This document shows positions 1-36,522 of a DNA stretch of 36,522 bases, piece after piece. Source of the DNA: a virus. The notes below the pieces were generated by a model. The model saw only the letters and a program-made list of their open reading frames with translations. It did no database searches and had not been told where the DNA came from. The stretch lies in the UHGV virus genome UHGV-0118448. One strand, 5' to 3'. How positions within the stretch are numbered: the stretch's first letter is position 1; each line of letters begins with the position of its first letter. Position numbers and translations under genes: made by a program.

Positions 1-49
1 TGACGGGTAAAAAGTGGATAAAATAATTTTACCCACCGGATTTTTACCC

Positions 50-1207
50 ATGCTCACCGTTAAGCAGATTGAAGCAGCAAAGCCGAAAGAAAAACCATAC
101 CGCCTACTCGATGGTAATGGCCTGTACCTTTATGTCCCTGTATCAGGGAAAAAGGTATGGCAGCTTCGCTACAAGATTGACGGTAAGGAGAAAATCCTGA
201 CCGTCGGAAAATATCCGCTTATGACTTTGCAGGAGGCAAGGGATAAAGCATGGACCGCGAGGAAAGACATCTCGGTTGGCATCGATCCGGTAAAGGCGAA
301 AAAGGCTTCGTCTAACAACAATTCCTTTAGTGCGATTTACAAGGAATGGTACGAGCACAAGAAGCAAGTATGGTCAGTAGGGTATGCGACTGAACTTGCA
401 AAAATGTTTGATGACGACATTTTACCTATCATCGGCGGCCTTGAAATTCAGGATATTGAGCCGATGCAACTGTTGGAAGTAATCCGCAGATTTGAAGATC
501 GCGGTGCAATGGAGCGAGCCAACAAAGCCCGCAGAAGATGCGGCGAGGTTTTCCGTTACGCTATTGTCACCGGAAGGGCTAAATATAACCCGGCACCTGA
601 CCTTGCAGACGCCATGAAAGGATACCGCAAGAAAAACTTCCCATTTTTACCTGCCGACCAGATCCCGGCATTCAACAAAGCACTTGCAACATTTTCAGGA
701 AGTATCGTATCGCTCATTGCGACCAAAGTTTTACGTTATACAGCCCTAAGAACGAAAGAGCTTCGTTCCATGCTATGGAAGAACGTCGATTTTGAAAACA
801 GGATTATCACCATCGACGCCAGTGTGATGAAGGGACGCAAAATTCATGTGGTCCCGATGTCAGACCAGGTGGTTGAACTTCTCACTACGCTAAGTTCAAT
901 CACCAAACCAGTCTCAGAGTTTGTTTTTGCCGGGCGCAACGATAAGAAGAAGCCAATCTGCGAGAACGCGGTATTGCTTGTGATCAAACAAATCGGCTAT
1001 GAAGGTCTGGAAAGCGGTCACGGATTCAGGCATGAATTCAGCACGATTATGAACGAGCACGAATGGCCTGCTGACGCTATTGAAGTGCAACTGGCACATG
1101 CCAACGGCGGATCTGTGCGCGGTATTTACAACCATGCTCAGTATCTCGATAAGCGCAGAGAAATGATGCAGTGGTGGGCGGATTGGATTGATGAAAAGGT
1201 GGAGTGA
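50..1207 (+). CDS. int: Tyrosine integrase (P4/IntS-like, 385 aa from ATG 50)
   Basis: N-terminus MLTVKQIEAAKPKEKPYRLLDGNGLYLYV typical of arm-binding domain of P4-type integrases; C-terminal HGFRHEF box and conserved Tyr region (GIYNHAQY). ORF track starts at GTG 14; ATG 50 matches the family N-terminus. Confidence 0.9.
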   Translation: MLTVKQIEAAKPKEKPYRLLDGNGLYLYVPVSGKKVWQLRYKIDGKEKILTVGKYPLMTLQEARDKAWTARKDISVGIDPVKAKKASSNNNSFSAIYKEWYEHKKQVWSVGYATELAKMFDDDILPIIGGLEIQDIEPMQLLEVIRRFEDRGAMERANKARRRCGEVFRYAIVTGRAKYNPAPDLADAMKGYRKKNFPFLPADQIPAFNKALATFSGSIVSLIATKVLRYTALRTKELRSMLWKNVDFENRIITIDASVMKGRKIHVVPMSDQVVELLTTLSSITKPVSEFVFAGRNDKKKPICENAVLLVIKQIGYEGLESGHGFRHEFSTIMNEHEWPADAIEVQLAHANGGSVRGIYNHAQYLDKRREMMQWWADWIDEKVE

Positions 1208-1430: not shown

Positions 1431-3335
1431 TCATGCGGATGGCGCATAAATTCCGTTAAAGTTAATTGAAATATCGTAATGTTGCATGTTGGCAGGAGTA
1501 ATCAGTAAATCTCTAAGTGTAACAACCACCCAGGGATTATCAGTGTTTGCTTTATCACAATAAACTCTTGTCGTTGTGGTTGACCCGGCATATACAGATA
1601 CATTTGCCGCAGATAATGTTCCGTCACTAGTGGCGTAATATGTTGCTGATGGCATTGTTGCAGTGCGGCCATGCGTTATTTCCACGATGCCAGCACTCAC
1701 CACAGAAACAGAGATATTATTTCTAATCCACTCTGGGACACCAGAGCCTGAAGGCGGTCTTCCATAACGAATGACTCCTGTTTTTGTATTAACAATAAAA
1801 GAGACGTCGGCATACACCGTGATTTTTAAAGTGAATGCATTGCCAACACGAAGTGGCTCTGCGTAGGCCCTGGCACCTTCTATACCCATAGTGCGATTGA
1901 CATATGCTGTAGCATAAAACCAGTTTTCTGCATTGTCTGCAATTTCTACAGAAAAATATTCCCCATCAGCAGAAACAACTAATTTATGGGCATTGGAAAT
2001 TTTCCATTCACTGTTTACTTCTTTAGATAAAAGAACCCATTTATCGTTATCATTGCTGTATTTAATAGTACCAGCGACTAATTTTGATCTTGTCCAAGGT
2101 GGGGCAAAATTTGAATATTGCGCTAAATCGGTTGAGGTTTTATTACTCGCCCCTCCTTTGACTATAGACCATAACCCCCTAGCACCTTCTCGCCCCATCG
2201 TATTGTAACCACGTTGTGTATAATGGACGCCTCCATCGTAAGTGCCAATATTGCCATCACCTTTTAAAAATGAAGGACAACCATCAAATACTGTCACAGC
2301 ATCAGTTTTGTTATTACAAACCCATCTTTGTGCATTTTGAATAGCAGCCCATGATTCTTCCGTTCGGTTCCCAGGGCAACCAACGGTAAAATTACCAAAT
2401 AAATCAAAATTAATATCGGCTTTCAGGTCATCTATCAAGGCTATAAAGCGGTCTCTATAAGAATTGTATGTGGTTCCTGATGACATATCCGTTTCACCCT
2501 GATGGAACAATACATACGTTTTACCGACAGGCAGACCTGCGGCAACCATCGCCTTTTTAGCTGATACCACGGCATTCACCAACAGCGAGTAGTATGTTGT
2601 CCCTTTTGATAGATGTGCTATCGACATTGCGCCACGGCCACAATGTATCTCCACTGAACCGCGCCCACTAAGGCGATACCATTCATTCTCAAATTCTCCC
2701 CAGGCATGTCCTGATGATGCAACTCCTGAAGAACTAACCACATTCTGAATTATTGGCTTTATAGTTCCATCTTTAAAATCGTACATTAACGATTTAGGAA
2801 GAGGATCTGGAAAACCTGATGTATCACCTGATAAAATAGCCTCGCCTGCGCTATTTGATTGCCCATACGTAACAAACACATCATATACATTTGGCGACTC
2901 AAGGTATTCTGTTGCAATAACATTACTTGCTATTTTTGATGCGGTTACTCCAGATATCATTACTGTACTATTAGTTTCTGACAACCTGCTTTCTAATTGA
3001 TCTGGATCATACTTCAATACGTTTGGAAAATAGAATTGCTGCGAACCATACGCATCATAAACAGCCATAGAATGGCCTTGCACAGTTACGAATTTGGCAA
3101 TCTGTCCGTTATATACAGGGTAACCAGCAGCGTTAATGATGATTGGTTGAGAAACAGGAACGTGAGAGCCATCTTCGTTCTCCACATAAGCCTGAATCTG
3201 GTTTTCAGGATTTACAGGGTCAGTATCAATTTTACCGATATAAATTTTGCCATTAGCTACGGCTTTAAAGGAACGAGCCATAGTGAAGAGTTGCGAAGGC
3301 ATTCCAATTACAACATTTGGGGTGATTTCCGTCAT
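1431..3335 (-). CDS. Tailspike protein: P22 gp9-type head-binding N-terminus fused to a carbohydrate-esterase-like (GQSN / HQGETD) receptor-binding region
   Basis: From internal Met: [43 protein letters not shown] matches the P22 tailspike head-binding domain; AGGA Shine-Dalgarno 8 nt upstream of ATG at 3335; downstream motifs [14 protein letters not shown] and VLFHQGETD. Gene is AT-rich relative to neighbours. Confidence 0.85.
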
Positions 3336-3526
3336 GGGCGCAATCCTATTAGATTGACTCGATAAAGAAGAGAATGGAGTTAATGCTACAAATGACGCTA
3401 TTGATTTGAAAAATGATCTTCTGTTCATTTAAGACACTCTTTAAGCATGACATTTGGTAGTAATGTAAGAAAAAATTACAATCAACTCCATAGCTATTTA
3501 ATTTTTAAAAGTGATTCACACCTGCA

Positions 3527-36140: not shown

Positions 36141-36204
36141 TTTATTTATTCATATATGAAAACAATGTAACCAATATTCGAATTGAAGAACTGAAAGAAC
36201 ACCA

Positions 36205-36229
36205 AGCCGCCTGATGGCGGTTTTTTATT
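36205..36229 (+). terminator. Intrinsic terminator upstream of xis
   Basis: agccgcc-tgat-ggcgg followed by ttttttatt. Confidence 0.7.
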
Positions 36230-36271
36230 GCCTGATTTGCAGGTTCGATTCCCTATTCGGAGATAGCACTC

Positions 36272-36472
36272 ATGCAACACGAACTACAACCTGATTCACT
36301 GGTTGATTTGAAATTCATCATGGCTGATACTGGCTTCGGTAAGACCTTCATCTATGACCGGATTAAGTCCGGCGACCTGCCAAAAGCCAAAGTTATCCAC
36401 GGGCGAGCAAGATGGTTATATCGTGACCATTGTGAATTCAAAAATAAGCTCTTAAGCCGCGCCAATGGGTAA
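36272..36472 (+). CDS. xis: Excisionase / AlpA-family DNA-binding protein
   Basis: 66 aa, MADTGFGKTFIYDRIKSGDLPKAKVIHGRARW winged-helix pattern of AlpA/Xis family. Confidence 0.8.
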   Translation: MQHELQPDSLVDLKFIMADTGFGKTFIYDRIKSGDLPKAKVIHGRARWLYRDHCEFKNKLLSRANG

Positions 36473-36522
36473 AATAGCGGGTAAAATATTTTTCACATCT
36501 AAAAAACACCATTCCAATCAAT

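Follow-up and report, generated by a model that had tools for sequence, protein, structure and literature searches.

The closest described relatives of the locus considered here are the recombination modules of KplE1 (CPS-53), HK620, Sf6, CUS-3 and Kapi1, which share the layout attL-intS ... torI-attR at argW; this tRNA gene is the target of the integrase family that includes those of IntS/KplE1, HK620, Sf6 and Kapi1 (PMC2951348, PMC3509656, PMC8787464). As published, the KplE1-type module comprises attL, attR, intS and torI, together with the core (16 bp), five sites for TorI, arm sites for IntS and sites for IHF; no conserved element upstream of torI is mentioned (PMC2951348, PMC3509656). 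TorI is the excisionase of the module, and an attR substrate of 135 bp, starting from the 3′ end of torI (primer CTCTTAAGCCGCGCCAATGG), is sufficient for excision in vitro (PMC3509656). The TorI sites are built on GTTCG/GATCG/GTCCG, the IntS arm-type motif is TAAA, and a promoter of intS itself has been mapped in attL (PMC2951348). Down-regulation of int at attL by Int together with the RDF, as in KplE1 (IntS/TorI) and P4 (Int/Vis), sets a precedent for recombination proteins acting as regulators through att-type sites, and control of excision in the KplE1 module has been argued to act on the RDF gene (PMC2951348). In Kapi1, a 17-bp duplication (CTGCAGGGGACACCATT) is present at both prophage ends, and attP is flanked by int and xis, which integration therefore places at opposite sides of the prophage (PMC8787464).

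The stretch of DNA analyzed here (the window; 36,522 nt, UHGV virus genome UHGV-0118448) carries the same genes, arm-type repeats and layout as these modules (Table 1) and is a provirus of the HK620/Sf6/KplE1 type with both ends trimmed. The window end is 99% identical to HK620 and to the corresponding region of Sf6, Kapi1, HK633 and many E. coli prophages; positions 1–600, the int region, show 98.5–99.8% DNA identity to annotated intS genes of E. coli genomes. Both genes lie on the + strand, int at the left end and xis at the right end of the window, the layout that integration between xis and int yields. Missing from the window are 150 nt around the core (HK620 segment L001 2124–2273); with them, the window lacks the P-arm end, the core of 16 bp itself, all five TorI sites and the −35 element of the intS promoter. 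The arm-type repeats of the P′ arm overlap the −10 region of that promoter, with the TorI sites and the core upstream, beyond the window, and we infer that the P arm has IntS arm-type sites in the two direct GGGTAAAA repeats at the xis stop codon, which are conserved among relatives. The module, the core and the argW target are already known. At the other side of int, the gap at 1208–1430 had been reported to hold no tRNA-like 3′ end, and indeed no att core is found there or elsewhere in the window, the core CTGCAGGGGACACCAT giving no match at ≤3 mismatches. Just past the int stop codon, a TTGC-N6-TTGC pattern (1243–1256, − strand) lies inside a palindrome (within 1236–1268) where HK620 has an annotated terminator, although a simple terminator scan made no call; the adjacent tailspike gene (1431–3428, − strand) encodes a P22-type head-binding domain and a SASA/acetylesterase-like domain (PF03629).

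Table 1. Coordinates of features discussed in the text; positions are those of the window unless another segment is named.
Feature	Position	Strand	Remarks
Distal end of P′ arm	1–49	+	Arm-type GGGTAAAA (5–12) and GGATAAAA (17–24), inverted TTTTACCC (27–34, 42–49)
intS-type tyrosine integrase	50–1207	+	385 aa; arm-binding, core-binding and catalytic domains
Intrinsic terminator	36204–36229	+	Hairpin and T-tract, closing the upstream 'ea' region; part of the neighbouring mosaic module, not of the recombination cassette
TTGCCTGATTTGC	36228–36240	+	HK620-annotated cII-binding site of 'phage integration' promoter; annotation unsupported here
16-mer TTGCAGGTTCGATTCC	36237–36252	+	Identical to argW nt 46–61
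Conserved T-arm box CAGGTTCGATTCCC	36240–36253	+	Invariant core GTTCGATTCCC at 36243–36253
xis Shine-Dalgarno region CGGAGATA	36258–36265	+	Conserved family-wide, at a fixed distance from the ATG
xis, excisionase (RDF)	36272–36472	+	66-codon ORF; 100% identical to TorI (KplE1), HkaC (HK620) and gp18 (Sf6)
Two direct GGGTAAAA repeats at xis stop codon	36467–36474, 36479–36486 (36467–36486)	+	
Truncated P22-type xis (K-12 ypdJ)	L003 10295–10435		
Truncated P22-type xis (5′ extension of Emek 'orf74')	L008 about 1902–1965		

Just upstream of xis, the original prediction had pointed to a tRNA T-arm-like 16-mer and proposed that it matched part of argW. The element is real and unique: TTGCAGGTTCGATTCC occurs once in the window with up to two mismatches allowed, ending 20 nt before the xis ATG (36272), and it is found at the same place in K-12, HK620 and Sf6, although the TTGC at its 5′ end is confined to the E. 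coli lineage. Against the 75-nt argW gene taken from the E. coli K-12 genome (NC_000913.3), the proposed match turned out exact over nt 46–61, breaking off on either side and reaching beyond the generic T-loop, since the T-loop (TTCGATT) is preceded in it by two bases of the variable loop and the 5′ strand of the T-stem (GCAGG) and followed by CC, with which the 3′ strand of that stem begins. None of 300 window shuffles reached an exact argW match of 16 nt (the maximum was 15, once); the generic T-loop 11-mer at ≤1 mismatch has two matches in the window vs. 1.1 expected, of which only the copy in the 16-mer is exact. The expectation that a P4/IntS-type integrase would target a tRNA gene is borne out by the argW specificity of the family. 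The flanks, as had also been stated, complete no tRNA: ARAGORN finds no tRNA gene in the window, a T-arm hairpin at the 16-mer is unsupported (GCAGG is followed by CCCTA, not CCTGC, and the flanks give no T-stem), and neither a cloverleaf nor a T-arm hairpin with a 3′ acceptor strand, by which a tRNA gene or pseudogene would be recognized, is present; Rfam is also empty.

The proposal that this 16-mer is the attachment core does not hold. The crossover core CTGCAGGGGACACCAT corresponds to argW nt 61–75 plus a T, and the 16-mer is the argW segment directly 5′ of it on the same strand, with an overlap of 1 nt (nt 61). The same 16 nt form the duplicated core of KplE1 in argW (PMC2951348), and the HK620 and Sf6 records place the 16-bp attP core downstream of xis and before int (in HK620, CTGCAGGGGACACCAT at segment L001 2147–2162). 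Host/prophage junctions carry CTGCAGGGGACACCA(T) in strains EF5-18-41 (attR) and TUM9803 (attL), in K-12 and in Kapi1: at the attR of EF5-18-41, homology to the window runs 24 nt beyond the last window base and is followed by CTGCAGGGGACACCA and then host DNA, and at the attL of TUM9803, argW is followed by the core, a P′ arm of 111 nt and then window base 1. No junction at the box was seen in the lysogens inspected. The 16-mer lies about 290–310 nt from the crossover core, which is just beyond the window, with the whole excisionase gene in between, and it falls outside the functional attR because the 135-bp substrate begins at the 3′ end of torI. It is therefore not duplicated at both junctions, does not lie between xis and int and is not part of the DNA that suffices for recombination. 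Of the two observations that were to count against the original prediction, junctions mapping elsewhere were found, and a lack of any host tRNA sharing the segment beyond the T-loop was not. In attP, just past the window end, P arm and core meet within a conserved inverted repeat, CCCCTGC-N17/18-GCAGGGG (HK620 L001 2124–2156 and relatives). Proteus hauseri (L027 1789–3367) has a minimal remnant with argW, attL and intS, in which an inverted xis directly follows int; the Proteus argW T-arm reads ACAGGTTCGATTCCTGT.

Comparison with relatives places the 16-mer in a different light: very probably, it is the form that a conserved T-arm box of 11–14 nt in the xis leader, the leftmost conserved element of the TorI-attP-IntS cassette, takes in the E. 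coli lineage, and not a crossover site. Xis relatives were collected from annotated phages, GTDB genomes, IMG/VR and metagenome assemblies, giving 189 loci. GTTCGATTCCC (≤1 mismatch) is present in 159 of them (~84%), 28–29 nt before the xis ATG (35 nt in Serratia) and 6–7 nt 5′ of the Shine-Dalgarno sequence. Clustering at 80% identity sorts the 60 distinct Xis proteins into 10 groups, and the box occurs in five of these, namely all three large clusters and two singletons; it is retained with Xis proteins as low as 30–37% identical. Third codon positions of xis are close to saturation across relatives, and between the window and relatives with Xis 34–49% identical, where third-codon identity is just 30–45%, the box is identical at 11/11 positions. 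The box is under purifying selection and hence is no decaying remnant. The suggestion that the 16-mer is a relic of a previous junction thus survives as a possible account of its origin, given its place at the left terminus of the cassette and its contiguity with the core in argW, but not as an account of a sequence in decay. The CAGG just 5′ of the invariant core is mostly kept, although less conserved, and the copies in Serratia and one Pantoea run on into CCTG, as in argW. In all loci with an identifiable att region, a TGCAGGGGAC-type core follows xis by about 75–90 nt.

Copy number of the box varies. Tandem boxes occur in two lineages, Midgardsormr38 (L005 1955–1985) and the P0093 contig (L319 about 1912–1940), with periods of 16 and 13 nt; P0093 is the most divergent member of the collection (Xis 30% identical by BLASTP), and Enterobacter R1 (L014) has a partial second copy (GCTCGATTC). 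In other loci (L180, L183, L185, L188–L190 and L018, the last from Dryocola), a clean deletion of ~29 nt has taken out exactly the box, joining the terminator-proximal TTGCCTG to the Shine-Dalgarno GAGATA, and in a few more the box is decayed. The box is thus dispensable, since several lineages have lost it cleanly yet keep downstream att cores that look intact. When viral contigs were scanned for GGTTCGAATCC-N-GGAG-N-ATG, the matches were solely tRNA genes or fragments, none preceding an RDF-like ORF. Short MAG contigs labelled Actinomycetes (L015) and Parachlamydiaceae (L029) carry an enterobacterial xis module with the box, probably through bin contamination.

At the box, homology among relatives ends, and at least four unrelated contexts are found upstream. 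One that is widespread (K-12 ypdJ, Salmonella phage Emek and many IMG/VR loci) consists of the first 18–21 codons of a P22-type xis (MESHSLTLDEAC.FLKIS), ~90% identical to Xis of phages L, epsilon34 and SE1Spa, with nucleotide homology stopping about 10 nt short of the box. This truncated gene is the scar left when a P22-type xis-int module gave way to the TorI-attP-IntS cassette. In the window, the corresponding position is taken by the terminator block, which occurs also in prophages that have no such cassette; the stretch 36160–36240 is, on its own, common to many lambdoid prophages.

Most likely, the conserved box just 5′ of xis is a control site for the excisionase gene, and what varies along with it, and what does not, bears on the identity of its ligand. 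The excisionase-site repeats switch from GTTCG to RTTACC in the P′ arms of phiEt88 (L009), L171, L177 and L178 (compared with HK620 and Midgardsormr38), with the box unchanged, and GGGCATA replaces GGGTAAAA as the arm repeat in those lineages in which identity of the Int arm domain drops to 55–58%. What stays constant along with the box is the tRNA target and the core; the box therefore behaves like the invariant tRNA target and not like the lineage-specific protein sites. In the diverged lineages the core-binding domain of Int is the best conserved (68–84%, vs. 55–58% for the arm domain), and the phiEt88 integrase, at 58, 84 and 78% identity to that of the window in its arm, core-binding and catalytic domains, respectively, looks mosaic. 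The conservation of the core-binding domain fits Int as a candidate ligand of the box and lends the idea indirect support.

Our tentative preference is accordingly worded: the box may be a cis-acting operator for xis that mimics the argW flank of attB and is occupied by Int. As a half-site for the integrase it qualifies by sequence, the consensus CAGGTTCGATTCC matching argW nt 49–61 at 13/13 positions and adjoining the start of the core at nt 61. The argW flank that abuts the core in attB is assumed to carry a core-type contact for the core-binding and catalytic domains of Int, and constitutive Int in a lysogen would sit on the box as well. On this candidate protein-binding operator, Int would damp read-through expression of xis until strong lytic transcription overrides the block, and a bridge to both arm-type repeats where xis ends, about 215–245 bp off, could assist by looping out the gene. 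A more elaborate version, in which Int held at this copy of the target-tRNA T-arm does form that bridge and loop, is doubtful as a whole. Because the 135-bp attR without the box suffices for recombination, its role would be regulatory rather than catalytic, and a hold of Int on excisionase expression would fit the published argument for control at the RDF gene. Directly 5′ of the real core in attP, TTCGAT is kept in most relatives, which is compatible with an Int contact there; the sequence to the left of the core nevertheless varies (GTAGATGTC in E. coli phages, TTAGGTGTC, TGTGATGTC), so such a contact is not obligatory. Against the operator reading, the box is dispensable and has no inverted partner half-site and no overlap-like sequence after it, and the spacing of the tandem copies (13 and 16 nt) matches no obvious helical phase. 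Every TorI-family member sampled targets argW, no member with another target tRNA being found, and the distant P4/IntS-type integrases (P4, YeP6, VW-6S, Acinetobacter 5W, Acica and Kp4865-2) have other layouts.

An Int-occupied operator of this kind would have partial counterparts in known systems. The tRNA blocks in P4-type attP sites, which run from the T-arm through CCA (an ssrA-like block lies beside int in Klebsiella phage Kp4865-2), likewise place a phage-borne copy of the target T-arm near a P4-family integrase; those blocks are contiguous, whereas here the T-arm copy is split from the core by the whole of xis and is not in the recombining site. The box resembles the core-type Int sites of lambda (C, C′, B and B′) in that it equals the attB sequence flanking the crossover block, its status as an IntS half-site being assumed, but it differs in having no adjacent overlap region or inverted partner and in lying in a gene leader. 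The regulation described for KplE1 and P4 acts on int, whereas the box would act on xis, a counterpart for which the accessible literature offers no description.

After occupancy by the integrase, the readings that deserve attention are, in order, a role at the RNA level, a pure relic and an operator for TorI. The box may act as an RNA element in the xis mRNA, as an anti-Shine-Dalgarno sequence, a translational operator or a processing, pause or Rho-related signal, its partner possibly being a host factor that is invariant in the Enterobacterales; we hold this to be unlikely. Its position in the presumably transcribed leader, 6–7 nt 5′ of the Shine-Dalgarno sequence, suits such a role, as does the pairing that UUCC of the box can form with GGAG in every lineage: many predicted folds sequester the Shine-Dalgarno sequence, and AUUCC:GGAGAU can often be drawn. 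An invariant box would also suit an invariant host partner, and inhibition of Rho raises the copy number of KplE1/CPS-53, which the source study interpreted as escape replication of the prophage. However, fold z-scores range from −3 to +1 and the RNAalifold consensus energy is −0.28, which amounts to no conserved structure; the T-stem complement is absent in most lineages, so no T-arm hairpin can form, an anti-Shine-Dalgarno pairing of 4 bp leaves the invariance of GGTTCGA unexplained, and Rfam returns only chance matches below threshold.

An improbable alternative is that the box has no present function and is left over from an ancestral contiguous argW block (T-arm through CCA) that was split by rearrangement or by insertion of xis, or from the capture of the cassette. 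The box and the core are neighbouring argW segments that overlap at nt 61 in the same order and orientation, related integrases such as that of Kp4865-2 have contiguous T-arm-to-CCA blocks in attP, the box itself forms the left terminus of the cassette, and CCTG follows it in Serratia and Pantoea as it does in argW. Neutral sequence would, however, be randomized at 30–45% third-codon identity, where the box is 11/11, and neither the fixed distance to the ATG nor tandem duplication on at least two independent occasions is what a relic predicts. Descent from such a block is compatible with a present function and is no substitute for one.

Slightly less probable again is autoregulation, in which TorI (Xis) would bind GTTCG in the box and repress its own gene as it does intS at attL. 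The repression of intS by TorI is already known, and the box has the GTTCG core that defines TorI sites: its GGTTCG agrees with site I4 (TGGTTCGC) at 6/8 positions, some lineages carry CAGTTCGA, which agrees with sites I1/I3 at 7/8, and one RTTACC-type lineage has CATTACC just upstream of the box. The switch of the excisionase-site repeats weighs against it, since phiEt88, L171, L177 and L178 have RTTACC in place of GTTCG in their P′ arms and an unchanged box; ATTCCC, moreover, is as conserved as GTTCG but lies outside TorI sites, and the box is usually a single copy, not a phased array.

The GenBank records of HK620 and Sf6 (AF335538, AF547987) annotate a CII-dependent 'phage integration' promoter here, with CII on TTGC..TTGC and the start of transcription within or just after the 16-mer. 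The likeness to the lambda pI/CII promoters (TTGC-N6-TTGC) lies in the proximity to recombination genes and in this annotation, and a CII homologue (PF05269) is encoded in the window, yet we regard the promoter as very improbable. Its spacing is N5, whereas the site at the pRE position of this phage (27890–27903) has the canonical N6, and the N5 pattern has five matches in the window vs. 3.1 expected, no more than chance. The half-sites are not conserved (the first is TTAC in K-12, the second TTGC is missing outside E. coli), there is no conserved −10 element and no predicted σ70 promoter, and the stretch lies upstream of xis, while pI lies inside it. Such a promoter would co-express Xis during lysogenization, the promoter of intS has been mapped in attL (PMC2951348), and the HK620 record lists hkaC merely as 'unknown.' The annotated features over 36228–36240 are therefore probably mis-annotations. 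As to use of the 16-mer as a primary or secondary attachment core, it is identical to the target tRNA and forms a direct repeat in the lysogen between argW and the copy upstream of xis, but next to no weight can be given to this reading, with primary integration there already refuted by lysogen and published junctions at CTGCAGGGGACACCAT(T), a copy some 310 nt within the prophage that falls outside the minimal attR, and argW homology that ends where the true core begins.

Several other candidates were rejected. The box is not coding, since an in-frame TGA precedes it in the E. coli leader and is followed by no start codon, and the spacing from box to ATG (28, 29 or 35 nt) maintains no reading frame; it is not a σ70 promoter, none being predicted. 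The Shine-Dalgarno region as a decayed argW acceptor strand (GGAGA from GGGGA) was dropped, the resemblance being too weak and hard to separate from the need for a Shine-Dalgarno sequence. A presumed resemblance to the TorR box (CTGTTCATAT vs. CTGTTCGATT) is weak in E. coli, where TorR is relevant, and involves a single box.

The T-arm box is apparently undescribed: in the accessible literature, no account of such a conserved, tRNA-like element 5′ of torI/xis was found, and the accessible literature on the module names no cis-element for control of excision at the RDF gene. In a practical respect, a lysogen carries the 16-mer as a direct repeat (K-12 L003 555–570 and 10485–10500): the argW copy is located just beyond attL and the other about 310 nt inside attR, so that nearly the entire prophage lies between them, and a repeat-based search for att sites could report a false site equal in length to the true core. 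For the biology of the family, the integrase being constitutive and the decision to excise being published as taken at xis, the box is a concrete candidate for the cis-element involved. If the proposed occupancy by Int is true, the recombinase itself would set the threshold for excision, and mimicry of a tRNA sequence would serve gene regulation rather than recombination.
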